The notes under the pieces were generated by a model. That model made no database searches and was not told where the DNA came from. It was given only the letters and a program-made list of their open reading frames with translations. From the IMG/VR virus record IMGVR_UViG_2617270946_000003: 10,164 nt of DNA; one strand, given 5' to 3'. The translations under genes were made by a program, and so were the position numbers. How positions within the stretch are numbered: the first letter of the stretch is position 1; each line of letters opens with the position of its first letter. This DNA is from a virus (taxonomy: Duplodnaviria; Heunggongvirae; Uroviricota; Caudoviricetes). This document shows positions 1-9,700 of the stretch, piece after piece.

Positions 1-76
1 CCTCACAGTTTATCCCGCCATATTCGTTGCTGGCTGCATTTCGTACTGCAAGAATCTCTTTTCCCTTATCCACCAT
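1..76 (-). CDS. Partial ORF immediately downstream of the tail fibre gene (3' end beyond window edge); function unknown, by position possibly a tail fibre assembly/chaperone gene
   Basis: On the minus strand the fibre stop TAG (87..85) is followed directly by AGGAGG (84..79) and ATG (76..74), with in-frame GTG at 73..71. It reads MVDKGKEILAVRNAASNEYGGINCE to the window edge. Not recognised as lambda Tfa. Confidence 0.35.
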   Translation of the reverse strand, partial: MVDKGKEILAVRNAASNEYGGINCE

Positions 77-84
77 GACCTCCT

Positions 85-1323
85 CTATGATATGCGCTGA
101 AATAATCCTGCCTGTCTGATACCCGGAGATGATGTCCATAGCATCGGACCACATGCACGCCACGTGCCCGGTAAACGGGTCTCCCCCACATTACCGGAAG
201 CAACCAGGGGAGTACCATCCGAAAGGCAACATGCAGACAGTGATGAGCCGGCAATGGCTGAGCCCGGTGCCATATCCCCCGAATAACTCGTCGCATAATA
301 TGCCGCAAGGACAAAAGAACCGACACCAAACAGTCCGCTGTCAGGACTTCCTGACGGTCCCTGAGGTCCTGCCGGACCTGCGGCTCCCGTATCTCCTTTT
401 GGCCCCTGAGGCCCTGCCTGACCTGCGGCTCCCGTATCCCCTTTTGGCCCCTGTGGTCCTGCCGGGCCTGCAGCTCCCGTATCTCCCTTTGGCCCCTGAG
501 GTCCTGCCGGACCTGCGGCTCCCGTATCTCCTTTTGGCCCCTGAGGTCCTGCCGGGCCTGCAGCTCCCGTATCTCCCTTTGGCCCCTGAGGTCCTGCCGG
601 ACCTGCGGCTCCCGTATCTCCTTTTGGCCCCTGAGGCCCTGCCTGACCTGCGGCTCCCGTATCCCCTTTTGGCCCCTGAGGCCCTGCCGGGCCTGCGGCT
701 CCCGTATCCCCTTTTGGCCCCTGAAGCCCTGCCGGGCCTGTATCCCCCTTGTCGCCCTTCGGTCCCAGTGGTCCGCCCGGATCGCCCTGCTCACCTTTCG
801 GACCTGTATCCCCCTTATCGCCCTTGTCACCTTTATCCCCTTTCGGCCCCGGTGGCCCTGCCGGGCCTGTATCGCCCTTGTCCCCCTTCTGTCCCTGTGG
901 ACCAGTTGCTCCGGTGTCGCCTTTCAGTCCCTGTGGCCCCACGGCAGTTTCGGCTTTCTCAGCAGCTTCTCGCGCCCTGCGCACAGCCTCATCCGCCGCC
1001 GCTTCCAGCTTCTTCAGTGCATCAGGATAATACGCTGCATCCGTTTCACGGAGCAGAAAGGCATTCAGGGTGCCCGGTTCGTCGTCGGCCATGACATCAA
1101 TCTCGCCGGCGCATGCCGGCTGACGACCTTCCACGCACAAGGTCACACGATAACGCCCCGGCTCAACCTGCATGCTGTAACTGCCCGTTTCGCCTGGCTG
1201 GTGCTCTGCCACCGTGGTGACTATCACCGTCTCACTCGTTCGCGTGGCTTTCAGCTCTATGGTGCAGTCCGGTACCGGTTTTCCTGTACCATCCTTCAGC
1301 ACACCTGAAATCTGTACTGACAT
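85..1323 (-). CDS. stf: Side tail fibre protein with collagen-like (Gly-X-Y) repeat shaft; N-terminal ~100 aa resemble the lambda Stf N-terminal domain
   Basis: 412-aa ORF with ATG at 1323..1321 preceded by a G-rich SD. N-terminus [17 protein letters not shown]...GTLNAFL resembles lambda Stf ([26 protein letters not shown]...GTLNDFL, from memory). Followed by a charged helical segment, then ~65 Gly-X-Y triplets and a ~95-aa non-repetitive C-terminus. Confidence 0.85.
359..718. repeat. Eight near-identical head-to-tail copies of a 45-bp unit (15 codons, [15 protein letters not shown]-type) inside the fibre gene
   Basis: Unit cctgaggtcctgccggacctgcggctcccgtatctccttttggcc begins at 359, 404, 449, 494, 539, 584, 629 and 674. 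Units at 359, 494 and 584 are identical, as are those at 404 and 629. More degenerate 9-bp collagen triplet repeats continue to ~942. Confidence 0.92.
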
Positions 1324-2096
1324 ATTCCCCCCACAAAAAAGCCCACCAGAACCGGCGGGCTGTCATAACTCTGTGTTACCTGGCTATGGTAGTTCACCGT
1401 CATCTGCTGACCACCAAACTGCTCCGCATCCACCTGCATCCCCACAATGGCCGTGTTCGGGTAGCACTGTTTCACATCGATGATTTCGGTGTATGACGAC
1501 CACAGCGTTCTGTTCTGCAGCTGGTCCGTGGTGCTGTCCGCCGTCTCCCTGACCATCCGGATGTTAAAGGGGCGGGGAGGCAGATTATCCAGAATCACCG
1601 AGGCCAGGAACTGTGAGGTGGTCTTGCCGTTAATGGTGACATCCTTTTCTGTCACCCAGTTACCGTTACGCTGTAACTGAATCAGCAGACGGACAGAGGA
1701 CGGATTACGGTCACCCTTTGACGTGGTCTCCACCAGTGACTGCACCCCGAAGGTCACCCGCAGGCGGTCAATGTTCGCTGACGTAATGGTGCGTGTTACC
1801 GGTTTTGCCCTGGTCACTTCGACACCCAGTACAGTTTCAGAGCCGGAGGACTCAAAGCCTTCCGGTGGTGTCTGCTCCTGCTCCCCGGCACGCCAGACCG
1901 CGGTCACACCGTGTATCACGGGATTACCGTCCGTGTCCGTCAGCGGGGTTTTGTTCACCAGAATACTCTGCAGGCTTTTCACCGGGCCTTCTATCGGTCC
2001 CTCACCAATCGCATCAATCACGCTCATCATCTGCGTGGATTTGAGATTGTCTTTCGCCTCACGAGGCGTGTGTGCCTTACCGCCACCTTTTCCCAT
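1296..2096 (-). pseudogene. J: Truncated central tail fibre / host specificity protein J: only the N-terminal ~236 codons, then ~30 unrelated codons to a stop
   Basis: MGKGGGKAHTPREAKDNLKSTQ...NIRMVRETADSTTDQLQNRTLWSSYTEIIDVKQCYPNTA matches the lambda J N-terminus (MGKGSSKGHTPREAKDNLKSTQ..., from memory) at roughly 80% identity. Similarity stops after ...QQMTVNYH (~1385). Lambda J is 1132 aa. SD GGGGAAGG precedes the ATG at 2096. Confidence 0.85.
1333..1361 (-). terminator. Hairpin plus U-tract just upstream of the fibre start codon (putative intrinsic terminator/attenuator)
   Basis: Minus-strand RNA AGCCCGCCGG-UU-CUGGUGGGCU followed by UUUUUUGU, ~10 nt before the fibre ATG. Stem includes two G-U pairs. 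Confidence 0.4.
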
Positions 2097-2441: not shown

Positions 2442-3105
2442 ACCCCTGCCGCCCGATAACCACGACCTTTCCGCCCCCGCCTTCATCACGGGTGCTGATG
2501 TCCTGGGATATACGGCGGGAGCCAACCAGCATTTCCCCGTAAGGCACCGGCATCGGGTTCCCCTGGGCAATCATGTTATCCAGCGAGGAAAAGTACGTGT
2601 TCTGTCTGCCGTTATCCGTTGCGCGGTAATCCGGTGTTTTTGCCTTCGGGGCCAGCATCTGGGCCACACCGCCCAGTATCATGCTGGCACCCAGTGAAAA
2701 CAGCATCGTGGTGGCAGAAAAACCACCGGCACTCAGGGCTGTACCCCATAACGCCATCGAGCCTCCGGCCGTGAAGAAAGAGCCCACGATGGCTGCCGCC
2801 CCCAACACAATCTGCAGTCCACCCTTTCCGGCCCCGGCCAGTCGCGGCACAATGTGGATGACCGTTCCCTCACCCAGCTGTTCGTGAAGGCGGGCGTACA
2901 CCACCTCCGGTGCCGTGTCTTCACCGGCAATACGTATCTGGTACCAGCCTTCGTTCATCTGAAGGCGAAAGCCCGGCATCTGCATCGACAGGGCGCGAAT
3001 GGCTTCCGCTGCCGTGTTCACATACAGGCTGAGGCGGCGGCCAAATCGTTGTAAATCCCCGTGGTTGCCCACGGTTGAGCCAGAGATAACAGCTTCCACC
3101 ATCAT
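2440..3105 (-). pseudogene. I: Tail assembly protein I homologue lacking its native N-terminus (first ~15 codons come from the FII/I deletion junction)
   Basis: From residue ~16 (GDLQRFGRR...) to the C-terminus (...GGKVVVIGRQG) it resembles lambda gpI (223 aa, from memory). The ATG at 3105 lies inside FII-derived sequence in another frame. Stop TAA at 2442..2440. Confidence 0.75.
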
Positions 3106-3839: not shown

Positions 3840-4865
3840 TTACGCCAGTTGTACGGACACGAACGCATCAGGATCAGCCAGCAGCATCAGCGGTGCTGAC
3901 TGAATCATGGTGAACTCACGCGCCGGATCGCCGGTGGTCACCCAGTTTTTCGGGTAGCGGGCAGAGGCGTTAATACCTTCGCGCTGTGCGTCCGCATCCT
4001 GAATGCAGCCATAGGTGCGCAGACCGCGTGCCTGAGTGTTCCCCAGCACCATCGTGTTGTCCGGCAGGAAGTTCTTTTTGACGTCGTTTTCCACGTACTG
4101 TCCGGAATACACGACGATCGCCGTATCGCCATACATCCCCTTATAGGACACCGCTTCGCCCAGGTCTTTTACCGCTGTCTCCAGCTCGGAATTAGAGCCG
4201 CGACGGGTATCCAGCTTCTCCTTGACGGCTTTGAAGGAACGGAACAGCGCCCAGCCTTTCGGATCAAACACGATGATATTCACCACGCCGCTGGCGTTCA
4301 GCGCGTAGGCTTCGATATCGTCGGTCGGGTCATACGTGGACTTGTCACGCTTGCTCCACTCCGTGCCGCCGGACTGCGTGATGTTGTTCGCCGCACTGCG
4401 GCCCATATCCACCTCAACCGGATCGAAGGCTTCACCGGTCATGGTGTATTTGCCCTTGAGCACGGCAGAAACGGCCTGCATCTCTTCGACCTGAGCAATG
4501 GCCAGCTCTTCGTCACGCATGTTCTGCATGATGATGCGACGGCGGCGGTAAGTCGGGTCCGCCAGATTCTGCGGATCTTCATCCGGCAGGCGACGCAGGG
4601 TCATCTGCGGATTCACTTCATGCTTGGGTTTGACATATCCCGGCGTAAATTCAGAGGTGGAGCCGCCACGGGAACGGATAACCTCACCGGAAACAATCGG
4701 CGAAACGTACAGCGCCATGTTTACCAGTCCCGGAATTTGTGAGAGATAGACTTTCTCCGTAGTGAAGGGATAGCTCTCACGGAAAAAGAGACGCAGAAAC
4801 AGCGGATCAAACTTAAATTTCTGCTCATTTGCCGCCAGCAGCTGGGCGGTTGTGTACATCGACAT
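3840..4865 (-). CDS. E: Major capsid protein E
   Basis: 341 aa, MSMYTTAQLLAANEQKFKFDPLFLRLFF...FVSVQLA, essentially lambda gpE, with identical length and identical gaps to D (55 nt) and FI (41 nt). Confidence 0.97.
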   Translation of the reverse strand: MSMYTTAQLLAANEQKFKFDPLFLRLFFRESYPFTTEKVYLSQIPGLVNMALYVSPIVSGEVIRSRGGSTSEFTPGYVKPKHEVNPQMTLRRLPDEDPQNLADPTYRRRRIIMQNMRDEELAIAQVEEMQAVSAVLKGKYTMTGEAFDPVEVDMGRSAANNITQSGGTEWSKRDKSTYDPTDDIEAYALNASGVVNIIVFDPKGWALFRSFKAVKEKLDTRRGSNSELETAVKDLGEAVSYKGMYGDTAIVVYSGQYVENDVKKNFLPDNTMVLGNTQARGLRTYGCIQDADAQREGINASARYPKNWVTTGDPAREFTMIQSAPLMLLADPDAFVSVQLA

Positions 4866-6582: not shown

Positions 6583-7735
6583 TCTTCTCCTCCTCTGTTG
6601 ATTGTCGCAGTCCGGATTCAAATGCCGCAGCCGCCCAGGCGGGCGGTTTAAGACCGGCTGCACGGCGCTCCATCGTTTCACGGACCTGCTGGGCAAAAAT
6701 TTCCTGATAGTCGTCACCGCGTTTTGCGCACTCTTTCTCGTAGGTACTCAGTCCGGCTTCTATCAGCATCACCGCTTCCTGTACTTCTTTCAGACCATCG
6801 ATGGCCATACGACCGGAGCCTATCCAGTCACAGTTCCCCCAGGCGCTGCGGGCTTCCTGAAAGCTGAAACGCGCTTTTGAAGGTAACGTCACCACGCGGC
6901 GAACGATGGCCTCTTCCAGCCAGCACAGAAACATCTGGCTCGCCTGACGGGATGCGACGAATTTTCGCCGCCCCATAAAGTACGCCCACGACTCGTTCGC
7001 ACTGGCCCGTGCCGTGGAATAGCTCATCTGGGCGTAATTCCGGGAAAGCTGCTCATACGAGACACCCAGCCCGGCAGCGATATACCGCAACAGTGACTGC
7101 TCAAACACGGAGTAGCCGTTATCCGTATCCTGAGCCGTCTGCAGGTTCAGTGAGTCACCCGGCATCAGGTGCGGCACTTTTGCGCCTCCCAGCCGAACCG
7201 GTGCTGCGGCGTAATACGCGGCAATTTCACCAATCCAGCCGGTCAGCTTGTCCCGCTGCTCCTGACTGTTCGCGCCCAGAATAAAATCCATCGCTGACTG
7301 CGTATCCAGCTCACTCTCAATGGTGGCGGCATACATCGCCTTCACAATGGCGCTCTGCAGCTGCGTGTTCTGCAGCGTGTCGAGCATCTTCATCTGCTCC
7401 ATCACGCTGTAAAACACATTTGCACCGCGGGTCTGCCCGTCCTCCACGGGTTCAAAAACGTGAATGAACGAGGCGCGCCCGCCGGGTAACTCACGGGGTA
7501 TCCATGTCCATTTCTGCGGCATCCAGCCAGGATAGCCGTCCTCGCTGACGTAATATCCCAGCGCCGCACCGCTGTCATTAATCTGCACACCGGCACGGCA
7601 GTTCCGGCTGTCGCCGGTATTGTTCGGGTTGCTGATGCGCTTCGGGCTGACCATCCGGAACTGTGTCCGGAAAAGCCACGACGGACTGGTATCCCAGGTG
7701 GCCTGAACGAACAGTTCACCGTTAAAGGCGTGCAT
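6563..7735 (-). pseudogene. B: Portal protein B lacking roughly its N-terminal 143 codons
   Basis: C-terminal ~390 aa (MHAFNGELFVQATWDTS...EEEKSDSRAA) match lambda gpB (533 aa). The A-stop to C-start distance is 1193 nt here versus 1781 nt in lambda, so 588 bp are missing. The first in-frame ATG is 7735; the track start at 7759 is TTG. Confidence 0.85.
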
Positions 7736-7778
7736 GCAGTGCCGCACGGGCAGCGGCAAGTTCTTCCTGTCGCGTCAT
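7722..7778 (-). pseudogene. W: Remnant of head-tail joining gene W: 15 conserved codons, then 3 novel codons and a stop
   Basis: ATG at 7778 overlaps the A stop (ATGA). Translation [18 protein letters not shown]-stop versus lambda W [21 protein letters not shown]... (68 aa). Confidence 0.7.
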
Positions 7779-9700
7779 TCATCCTCTCCGGATAAGGCAC
7801 GGGCGTAATCTGCCAGTGTTTTCTTGTTGGTTGCTGCACCATCCTCTTCCTTCAGGCTCGCCAGCAGTGCACTGAGATCCAGCTGCCAGCGGGAAATACT
7901 GATGCGCAGCGCCGCCAGCGCATAAACGAAGCAGTCGAGCGCCTCATTGCGTCGTTTTTTGCTGTCCCACAGTATTTTTTTCCTGCCATCCACCCATTTT
8001 TCGACCTGCTCTTCAGCCGTCAGCTGCTGCGCTTCGGTCAGATCAAAAATATCCGGGTTATTCGGGAAGTGAACGGCACCGGGAAGCGGTTCATCCCCTT
8101 CCGGCGTCAGTGTGAAGCGGTTATAAATCTGCTCTTTCGCGGTATCCGTACCGATTTCGGTAAGGTAAACCCCGTTTTTGTTTCGCTTACGTGGCATGCT
8201 GGCCACCGGCTTTCCGTAGACGGATGCCCCTTTAATGGGGATCACCCGGAACAGCCCATGTTTTTTCGAGCGTTCATACACGATGGTCGGGTCAATCCCG
8301 CCAGTATCCCAGCAGATACGGGATACCGACATTTCTGCACCATTCCGGCGGGTATAGGTTTTATTGATGGCCTCATCCACACGCAGCAGCGTCTGTTCAT
8401 CGTCGTGGCGGCCCATAATAATCTGCCGATCAATCAGCCAGCTTTCCTCACCCGGCCCCCATCCCCATACGCGCATTTCGTAGCGATCCAGCTGGGAGTC
8501 GATACCGGCGGTCAGGTAAGCCACACGGTCAGGAACGGGCGCTGAATAATGCTCTTTCCGCTCTGCCATCACTTCAGCATCCGGACGTTCGCCAATTTTC
8601 GCCTCCCACGTCTCACCGAGCGTGGTGTTTACGAAGGTTTTACGTTTTCCCGTATCCCCTTTCGTTTTCATCCAGTCTTTGACAATCTGCACCCAGGTGG
8701 TGAACGGGCTGTACGCTGTCCAGATGTGAAAGGTCACACTGTCAGGTGGCTCAATCTCTTCACCGGATGACGAAAACCAGAGAATGCCATCACGGGTCCA
8801 GATCCCGGTCTTTTCGCAGATATAACGGGCATCAGTAAAGTCCAGCTCCTGCTGGCAGATGACGCAGGCATTATGCTCGCAGAGATAAAACACGCTGGAG
8901 GGGTCATCCGGCGTCCATTTGAGGCCAAACGGCGTCTCTTTGTCGCCAAATTTAAGATACTGCTCCTCCCCGCAGTGCGGGCAGGCAACATGAAAACGCA
9001 TAAAATGCGGGGATTCACTGGCTGCACGCTCAATCTGGCAGGTGCCTCTCACTTTGGGCGTGGAGCCACGGATGGACTTTGGCCAGACCGAGCCTTCAAT
9101 ACGCTTATCGCCCAGGAACGTCGGAGAGCCTTCCTGTTCAATATCCTCATCAAAGGCAGCAAGTTCATCATAACCCGCCACATCCACTGACTTTTCACGG
9201 TAGTTTTTTGCCGCTTTACCGCCCAGGCACCAGAAGCCACGACCATTGGAAAAACGCTTCATGGTGAGCGTGTTATCCCGGTGCTTTTTGCCATACCACG
9301 GGGCCAGCGCCAGCAGCGACGGAATATCACGAATAGTCGGTTCAACGTGGGTTTTCATAAAGTTCTCGGCATCACCATCCGTCGGCAACCAGATAAGGGT
9401 GTTGCGCTGCTTATGCTCTATGAAGTAGGCATAAACACCCAGCAGCATTTTGGAATAACCAACACGGGCAGACTTCACCACATTCACCTCACGGATGTAG
9501 TCGCTGCCCATCGCATTCATGATGGCCCGCTGAAAGGGCAGTGTTTCCCAGCGCCCTTCCTGGTATGCGGATTCTTTCGGGAGATAGTAATTGGCATCCG
9601 CCCATTCAACGGCGGTCTGTGGCTCCGGCCTGAACAGTGAGCGAAGCCCGGCGCGGACAAAATGCCGCAGCCTGTTAACCTGACTGTTCGATATATTCAC
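7775..9700 (-). CDS. A: Terminase large subunit A
   Basis: 641 aa (MNISNSQVNRLRHFVRAGLRSLFRPEPQTAVEWADANYYLP...LADYARALSGEDE), near-identical to lambda gpA and the same length. The start codon at 9700 is GTG in this sequence. Overlaps Nu1 by 26 nt, as in lambda. Confidence 0.97.
   Translation of the reverse strand: MNISNSQVNRLRHFVRAGLRSLFRPEPQTAVEWADANYYLPKESAYQEGRWETLPFQRAIMNAMGSDYIREVNVVKSARVGYSKMLLGVYAYFIEHKQRNTLIWLPTDGDAENFMKTHVEPTIRDIPSLLALAPWYGKKHRDNTLTMKRFSNGRGFWCLGGKAAKNYREKSVDVAGYDELAAFDEDIEQEGSPTFLGDKRIEGSVWPKSIRGSTPKVRGTCQIERAASESPHFMRFHVACPHCGEEQYLKFGDKETPFGLKWTPDDPSSVFYLCEHNACVICQQELDFTDARYICEKTGIWTRDGILWFSSSGEEIEPPDSVTFHIWTAYSPFTTWVQIVKDWMKTKGDTGKRKTFVNTTLGETWEAKIGERPDAEVMAERKEHYSAPVPDRVAYLTAGIDSQLDRYEMRVWGWGPGEESWLIDRQIIMGRHDDEQTLLRVDEAINKTYTRRNGAEMSVSRICWDTGGIDPTIVYERSKKHGLFRVIPIKGASVYGKPVASMPRKRNKNGVYLTEIGTDTAKEQIYNRFTLTPEGDEPLPGAVHFPNNPDIFDLTEAQQLTAEEQVEKWVDGRKKILWDSKKRRNEALDCFVYALAALRISISRWQLDLSALLASLKEEDGAATNKKTLADYARALSGEDE

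Follow-up and report, generated by a model that had tools for sequence, protein, structure and literature searches.

Variable copy number of an in-frame 45-bp tandem array that encodes much of the collagen-like shaft in lambda Stf-type side tail fibres of Escherichia coli prophages

The side tail fibre gene and its repeat array

The window studied here, i.e. the whole stretch of DNA that was analysed, comprises 10,164 nucleotides of a tailed virus (Caudoviricetes; IMG/VR record IMGVR_UViG_2617270946_000003) and is identical in extent to the entire 10,164-bp contig JNRI01000098.1 of the draft assembly GCA_000704605.1. Near its first end it carries a gene for a side tail fibre protein of 412 amino acids, and the collagen-like region of this protein is encoded in large part by 45-bp tandem repeats which lie in frame with the coding sequence. 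The number of repeats differs between related prophages of Escherichia coli. We are confident, short of certainty, that the array is an in-frame coding minisatellite of a lambda Stf-type side tail fibre from a lambdoid prophage, in which the turnover of units varies the length of the collagen shaft and links fibre modules. The gene and its parts are located as follows.

85..1323, minus strand: side tail fibre gene, 412 amino acids and a TAG stop at 85-87 (open reading frame list, translation, Pfam and PHROG matches)
943..1323, minus strand: N-terminal domain, residues 1-127, a lambda gpStfN-like collar and a short helical linker ([21 protein letters not shown]) (PF08400, PDB 9e7m_Ta)
343..939, minus strand: collagen-like Gly-X-Y region, residues 129-327, 199 residues (PF01391, analysis of Gly-X-Y runs)
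343..774, minus strand: variable segment in coding register, flanked by the conserved GDP-G-GP interruption and by the C-terminal domain
359..740, minus strand: 45-bp tandem array (Tandem Repeats Finder call, unit identity matrix, lag-45 identity versus triplet shuffles)
730-774: diverged unit [15 protein letters not shown], the first unit of the variable segment
370-729: eight canonical 15-codon units G(P/L)[11 protein letters not shown](P/Q)A, in frame
343-369: 9-codon tail GPQGPSGSP, the end of the variable segment
88..342, minus strand: C-terminal domain, 85 residues (DSGLFGVG...AGLFQRIS), conserved in all homologues with this array

An initial annotation made from the letters alone had taken the gene for a tail fibre gene. 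Profile and structure-sequence matches bear this out; as a correction, the gene lies on the minus strand. The family PF08400 (phage_tail_N) matches residues 1-127 (E 1e-40, 139 bits at a cut-off of 26.6), the PDB chain 9e7m_Ta, the collar domain of the Ur-lambda side fibre, matches residues 1-91 (E 5e-29), and PF01391 (Collagen) matches the protein with E 2e-30. The collagen-like region is composed of 18 Gly-X-Y triplets, one extra Gly and a further 48 triplets, 66 triplets in all. The extra Gly belongs to the interruption G-D-P-G-G-P-L-G, which reads G-D-P-G-G-P-(Q/P)-G in 15 close homologues and is missing from O104:H4-type genes. A plus-strand open reading frame (ORF) of 321 amino acids (129-1094) runs antisense through the collagen region; we rejected it as a gene, as its low-complexity translation (of the [13 protein letters not shown] type) results from the periodicity of Gly-Pro codons.

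The shaft is followed by the C-terminal domain of 85 residues, the presumed trimeric distal knob or receptor-binding end. Judged by sequence comparison, this domain belongs to no described family. The C-terminal 94 residues gave no Pfam match at E up to 10, comparison of the domain with PDB sequences yielded only matches of E 0.3-0.8, none of them convincing, and a word-indexed protein search returned partial E. coli proteins only. An exhaustive search of representative proteins revealed one credible distant relative (P0158, 47% identity), which also caps a collagen shaft; the other matches were of low complexity. A single-sequence AlphaFold model of the domain reached a mean pLDDT of 43 and was too poor for a fold search.

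Tandem Repeats Finder (TRF) detects one strong array in the window, at 359-740, with a period of 45, 8.5 copies, 92% matches, 0% indels and a score of 631. The initial annotation had described eight near-perfect in-frame repeats of 45 bp at 359-718 and had suggested formal calling of unit and copy number by this program; both the call and the translation, in which the repeat encodes ([15 protein letters not shown])n, confirm its description. When units are cut at 359 + 45i (eight units, to 718), the unit identity matrix shows copies 1, 4 and 6 to be identical at the nucleotide level, in agreement with the three identical copies reported before. Copies 2 and 7 are identical in this register as well, and the remaining pairs of units differ at 1-7 of 45 positions. 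In the coding register the window holds n = 9 units.

Collagen genes have an ordinary 9-bp codon periodicity, and the signal of the array far exceeds it. Identity of the array to itself is 0.92 at lag 45 and only 0.44-0.54 at lags 9-36. In 2000 shuffles of the fibre gene's own Gly-X-Y triplets, lag-45 identity was 0.45 +/- 0.03 with a maximum of 0.58, and the non-repeated collagen segment immediately upstream of the array gives 0.53.

Copy number among related prophages

In a phage genome collection of 50,697 records we found no full-length homologue of the fibre, and the comparison of copy number is therefore based on prophages of completely sequenced E. coli strains. Window positions 1-1386 have a full-length homologue in 14 complete E. 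coli genomes (best identity 94.9%). We fetched the loci of 11 of these 14, together with 12 further E. coli loci that show partial overlap or carry the related O104:H4-type fibre. The 45-bp unit itself does have matches in the phage collection. These cover 65-159 nt (5-11% of the query) at 82-89% identity and lie in collagen-like fibres of Shiga toxin (Stx)-converting and Shigella phages, e.g. P13374, phi191 and Ss-VASD (records H71-H85), short-tailed Stx phages included; the fibres are otherwise unrelated.

The annotated lengths of the homologous fibres step by 15 residues (352, 367, 382, 397, 412, 427 and 442 aa), with one related group a single triplet off this ladder at 415 aa. The segment from the interruption to the C-terminal domain measures 15n+9 residues, with n = 5, 6, 7, 7, 8, 8, 8, 9, 10, 10 and 11, and 15n+12 residues in three genes of the ECO2947 group. 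TRF, applied to 17 homologous genes from complete E. coli genomes, reported a period of 45 in 17/17, with 4.4-11.3 copies and, in 15 of the 17, no indels. Across the homologues the number of units ranges from n = 4 to 11, and the differences come in 45-bp steps. Proteins from draft genomes stretch the ladder down to a single unit (array lengths of 24, 39, 54, 84, 99, 114 and 129 aa), a few of their alleles lying off it by whole triplets. The shaft had been suspected of being variable in length, a suspicion which an identical copy number in all homologues would have contradicted; the comparison across strains reveals a ladder of 15-residue steps instead. Likewise, the expectation that gain or loss of copies keeps the frame agrees with the 45-bp steps and with the intact ORF found in every allele examined.

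Copy number changes faster than point substitution. The fibre genes of A8 and ECOR29 differ at 1 nt in ~820 nt outside the array, yet they contain 7 and 11 units, respectively. CFIA20120266 and STEC299 differ at 2 nt outside the array, yet they contain 6 and 5 units. A search of the literature for the tract as a described variable-number tandem repeat of E. coli gave nothing relevant.

The fibre module of A8 and ECOR29 has moved between prophages or sites. Its chromosomal neighbour is ssrA in A8, whereas in ECOR29 it lies by a tRNA-Ser gene adjacent to hyaA; the lom products of both carry the same protein accession, and gpJ is annotated as incomplete in both.

Turnover of units, conservation of the protein and shuffling of modules

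Typing of the units resolves the A8 array into 33-34-35-36-35-37-38 and the ECOR29 array into 33-34-35-36-39-37-40-41-37-40-38. Units 40 and 41 of ECOR29 are hybrids, which combine the 5' half of one A8 unit with the 3' half of a neighbouring one, and the four extra units of ECOR29 are arranged as a duplicated block of three units. Hybrid units and block duplication are what out-of-register recombination or slippage would be expected to leave behind when the breakpoints fall inside units. The array of the window, which reads 1-2-3-4-5-6-5-7-4 by unit types, has a block structure like that of ECOR29. Its higher-order structure is apparent from identities of 0.93 (lag 90) and 0.95 (lag 225), and its longest exact internal repeat extends over 95 nt (359-453 = 584-678).

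The units of an array show concerted evolution. Among nine arrays of different lineages, pairs of units differ by 5.4 nt within an array and by 7.1 nt between arrays, a gap which was reached by 0/2000 permutations. This supports the ongoing homogenisation that the initial annotation had put forward. The dominant unit variants are specific to the lineage, namely AA in the window, AT in A8 and ECOR29, and DT in JNEC-KY204.

At the same time the encoded protein is constrained. The Gly codons are kept in 98/98 in-register units examined, and among ~140 units examined in all there is no frameshift and no lost Gly. Codon differences between units are mostly synonymous (synonymous versus non-synonymous: 137 vs 54 in the window, 85 vs 10 in A8, 51 vs 4 in STEC299), and an intact ORF is present in each allele that was examined. 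Thus the repeat drifts in its silent sites and in copy number, but the amino acid sequence it encodes is preserved.

The arrays are also found between differing fibre modules. The N-terminal part of the window gene is closest to ZH48 and EC100 (6 mismatches), while its C-terminal part is closest to JNEC-KY204 (2/258 mismatches), a strain with a different N-terminal half, and the array of the window holds unit types of both lineages. ZH48 and EC100 have identical N-terminal parts and C-terminal parts with 18 differences. In O104:H4 and in 55989 the array and the C-terminal domain stand behind a PfN-PCoil module, and in SHP24 the array precedes an unrelated C-terminus. Being shared across differing N- and C-terminal modules, the array therefore acts as a homology bridge between fibre modules.

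Copy number in the O104:H4 clone and the reliability of assemblies

The complete genomes of the 2011 O104:H4 clone encode a related fibre, for which alleles of two lengths are on record.

L017 2585-4123, L019 2585-4123, L018 2585-3988 and L021 2686-4089: O104:H4 fibre loci with 7- or 4-unit alleles

Seven units (512 aa) are present in 2011C-3493 and FDAARGOS_349 and, judged by matched length, also in FDAARGOS_403, in C227-11 and in a derived mutant. HUSEC2011 and FWSEC0009, which belong to the same O104:H4 clone, have four units (467 aa). The flanks of these alleles differ at 0-1 of ~4 kb, and the extra material of the long allele is an exact 135-bp duplication. The split into four and seven units reflects either a real change within the clone or a collapse of repeats in two assemblies designated complete. 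RefSeq labels the long allele an incomplete pseudogene lacking its C-terminus (L017 3065-4123, L019 3065-4123). The frame of this allele is actually intact up to the normal ...LFQRIS stop, and the pseudogene label looks like an annotation artefact due to the extra repeats.

That short-read assemblies tend to collapse such a tract, as had been cautioned, is plausible. More than 120 database proteins are partial and comprise the end of the collagen region and the C-terminal knob (e.g. P0149-P0151, P0122, P0126), some of them from contigs of 521-1166 bp; such proteins would plausibly be expected if draft assemblies often break in or next to the array. The O104:H4 assemblies, moreover, disagree by exactly 135 bp.

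The same concern extends to the window. The array could be real and yet the count of 8.5 copies and the identity of three copies could have arisen during short-read assembly, in which case the strain would differ from the contig in these respects. The contig, which the window covers in full, comes from a draft assembly, and with an exact internal repeat of 95 nt and an identity of 0.95 at lag 225 a de Bruijn graph is ambiguous at usual k-mer sizes. The many partial proteins, which start in the collagen region just before the C-terminal knob as contig breaks would give, and the disagreement between complete O104:H4 assemblies point in the same direction. However, the databases list the identical 412-aa protein for two contigs or samples, the nine units fall inside the observed range of 4-11, and the array of the window is not unusually homogeneous for the family (92% TRF matches versus 81-93% in the arrays of complete genomes). 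We consider it possible, though on the unlikely side, that copy count and identical units in the window are of this origin.

Prophage context

On its minus strand the window carries lambda-like head genes, namely Nu1, terminase, portal, S49 protease, D, E, FI and FII. In comparison with the intact relative in strain S1-CAM-01-A (L020), which served as reference, three deletions are apparent. They are listed here together with the features that flank the fibre gene.

7733-7736: joint of deletion 1; W and the first ~143 portal codons lost
3061-3063: joint of deletion 2; the end of FII through almost all of K lost, ~7 kb of tail genes (Z to K)
1382-1386: joint of deletion 3; J from ~codon 238 through lom lost
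1340..1361, minus strand: terminator-like hairpin, 9 pairs, 6 of them G-C, then a T run; just upstream of the ribosome-binding site of the fibre gene
1..76, minus strand: truncated start (25 codons) of the downstream DUF4376 gene, which runs off the contig (collinearity with L001, whose coding sequence end is equivalent to window position 76)

At each deletion joint the flanking alignments overlap by 3-5 nt (microhomology), and the same joints occur in no complete E. coli genome. The prophage copy of the window is defective or, less probably, the contig is chimeric.

One reading of these deletions is that the prophage is dead and the tract a relic in decay, its copy changes being neutral noise without function for the phage. 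The incomplete annotation of the adjacent gpJ in M8, A8, ECOR29, CFIA20140388 and SCU-111 also speaks for it. Decay, however, is hard to reconcile with an ORF unbroken in the window as in all homologues examined, with ~140 units free of frameshifts and lost Gly, and with unit differences that are mostly synonymous. Furthermore, the homologue in ZH48 sits in a tail module in which all tail genes, from the tape measure to J, are annotated as intact. Neutral change of length would fit turnover of units in a coding minisatellite too, and only the absence of function is at variance with it. We regard the relic as a doubtful explanation. A programmed hypervariation device, either a phase-variable contingency locus or the target of a diversity-generating retroelement, which would switch the expression or specificity of the fibre, was rejected as exceedingly improbable: the one point in its favour is that length changes quickly in comparison with point substitution, whereas copy changes of a unit divisible by three cannot shift the frame and every allele is in frame, the larger ORFs of the window that were scanned gave no match to a reverse transcriptase or a template-repeat partner, and the variation concerns copy number and mostly silent sites, not the receptor-binding end.

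In the window the fibre gene abuts the J fragment of 238 codons. In nearly all of the E. coli relatives fetched it occupies the classical stf position after gpJ and lom and before the DUF4376 gene, SCU-111 being without annotated lom, and RefSeq names the product 'prophage tail fiber N-terminal domain-containing protein'. The terminator-like hairpin follows lom in the relatives, and the homology of the window to them ends at 1386. The DUF4376 gene, as downstream neighbour of the fibre gene, takes the position of lambda tfa, the tail fibre assembly gene. In the records of JNEC-KY204 and O104:H4, the annotated start of DUF4376 overlaps the 3' end of the fibre gene by ~55 nt. DUF4376 proteins (177-201 aa) were grouped into the same 90%-identity cluster as the 367-aa fibre protein P0003; this is a clustering artefact, as direct comparison revealed no similarity (E 15). 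Elsewhere in the window, TRF also reports a two-copy 21-bp repeat at 8909-8950 in the gene for the large terminase subunit (score 56) and a weak 6-bp repeat at 3865-3891 at the start of the major capsid gene region (score 31).

Discussion

The fibre protein is probably a homotrimer. Its N-terminal collar domain would dock on the tail tip and anchor the trimer there, as homology with Ur-lambda Stf suggests. By analogy, the Gly-X-Y region, roughly two thirds of which is encoded by about nine 45-bp units, would form a rigid triple-helical stalk, and the 85-residue C-terminal knob would probably trimerise the chains and contact the cell surface. The expected rise of collagen is 2.88 A per residue (PMC3368898). 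At this value each unit would alter the stalk by ~4.3 nm; the 199-residue collagen region of the window would measure ~57 nm, and those of homologues with the same type of N-terminal half ~40-66 nm.

Long stretches are identical from unit to unit, so that homologous recombination out of alignment, or slippage during replication, would add or remove whole units or blocks of 2-5 units. Gain or loss of units would leave the reading frame and the Gly-X-Y register unbroken. The same turnover would keep the units within one array alike, and units shared between arrays would provide crossover points at which different N-terminal and C-terminal modules are joined.

Variation of collagen length in this class of fibres is known. 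Ghosh et al. (2012, PLoS One 7:e37872; PMC3368898) described EPcl, the collagen-like side tail fibre proteins of prophages of enterohaemorrhagic E. coli, whose collagen domains vary in length within architectures by multiples of three residues. Recombinant EPclA and EPclB were trimers with the circular dichroism signature of a collagen triple helix, and a dumbbell shape and a C-terminal trimerisation domain were shown for recombinant proteins of this class (PMC3368898). Both the PfN domain (PF08400) and the (Gly-X-Y)n collagen domain (PF01391) of EPcl are present in the protein of the window, and its interruption G-D-P-G-G-P-L-G matches a motif described for EPcl proteins (PMC3368898). EPclA, B and D contain a PCoil region of ~116 aa, whereas the window protein is without PCoil and has only a helical linker of ~27 aa; PCoil is often missing in EPclC (PMC3368898). 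In addition, EPclA and EPclB end in a PfC domain (PF06820), which the window protein lacks, so that only architectures of the EPclC or EPclD type fit. In its domain composition (no PCoil, a C-terminus other than PfC) the window protein fits the description of the EPclC type. The array and C-terminal domain of the window also occur in the 467-aa allele of HUSEC2011 and FWSEC0009 and in the gene of 55989, and 467 aa is the length listed for EC55989_1078, which appears as EPclC* (PMC3368898).

The Ur-lambda Stf collar consists of twelve copies that ring the gpV/gpM junction at the tail tip as four trimers (PMC12617516). With lambda Stf (PDB 9e7m) the window protein shares the homologous collar domain (E 5e-29, residues 1-91) and, in the relatives of the window, the position of the gene downstream of J and lom. 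Presumably both fibres are trimeric and reach the cell before the central fibre. In contrast, lambda Stf has a stalk of coiled-coil and beta segments with Pf2 repeats and an OmpC-binding tip, whereas the stalk of the window fibre is collagen-like and its tip an unrelated domain of 85 residues; PF03406 (Pf2 repeats) gave no match in the window fibre protein. Downstream of lambda Stf lies tfa, downstream of the window fibre DUF4376. The side fibres of lambda are longer than the central fibre and bind first (PMC12617516), so that reach is a plausible functional variable.

Repeat polymorphism in collagen-like regions is not confined to E. coli prophages. The window fibre has in common with BclA of Bacillus anthracis an in-frame repeat polymorphism in a bacterial collagen-like region. 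Work by Sylvestre and colleagues from 2003 reportedly established that this polymorphism of BclA sets the length of the exosporium filaments, a phenotype that was measured. BclA, however, is an exosporium glycoprotein with other repeat units and a measured effect on length, whereas the window fibre is a phage fibre known from its sequence. The antireceptors of Streptococcus thermophilus phages contain collagen-like repeats between domains, and these repeats are suggested hot spots of recombination (PMC5601072, citing Duplessis and Moineau 2001). In the Guarani virophage, expansion of the host range went along with the spontaneous loss of repeats, in frame, from ORF8 (PMC7242381). As in the E. 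coli fibre, collagen-like repeats separate host-recognition domains in these proteins; the proteins and their hosts are unrelated to those studied here, and the units of the virophage measure 27 nt as against 45 bp.

Several points weigh against a coding minisatellite that tunes the fibre shaft. In the literature cited, collagen length is not tied by experiment to adsorption or host range in this fibre family. The near-clonal pairs ZH48/ZH49, ST865/ST866 and ECO2947/YZ_2_1 show equal matched length, so on the shortest time scales the tract is not hypermutable. The sole within-clone difference that we found, that of O104:H4, could be due to assembly collapse. As to the window itself, a draft contig with an exact internal repeat of this size may be wrong in copy count and unit order. 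The prophage of the window, in which W with the 5' part of the portal gene, the genes from Z to K, and lom along with most of J are missing, cannot build a tail alone, and its fibre may never be assembled.

A bolder reading is that the array changes fast enough to differ within an outbreak clone, that the 4- and 7-unit alleles of O104:H4 are both real, and that the length of the shaft is selected and quickly tunable. We think this improbable. If true, the reach of the side fibre would be matched to the depth of the O-antigen or capsule layer of the host, and the array would supply the homology by which lambdoid and Stx phages swap receptor-binding ends. The array could then also be of use in epidemiology, as a marker scored by length, and could offer a natural design rule to those who engineer the reach of fibres.

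Published in 2012 for this fibre class (PMC3368898), the variation of collagen length is a known phenomenon in a known protein class, and the current picture of these fibre proteins is unchanged by our findings. What is added is detail at the level of the unit: the 45-bp unit itself, the ladder from 4 to 11 units, hybrid units, exact block duplications, concerted evolution, mosaic joints in the array and the O104:H4 discrepancy. The 45-bp unit, the copy-number ladder, hybrid units and within-clone differences are not part of the published EPcl description (PMC3368898). On the practical side, the tract probably breaks or collapses in short-read assemblies, and copy numbers from draft genomes are untrustworthy without long reads; in addition, the array apparently led the NCBI annotation pipeline to call an intact long allele a pseudogene. 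For the biology of the phages, side tail fibres make the first contact of lambdoid phages, including those that carry Shiga toxin, with E. coli, and their reach could affect the rate of adsorption and the range of accessible hosts. Frame-safe steps of ~4.3 nm would provide these fibres with a simple evolutionary dial for length and, at the same time, with a recombination bridge between fibre modules.

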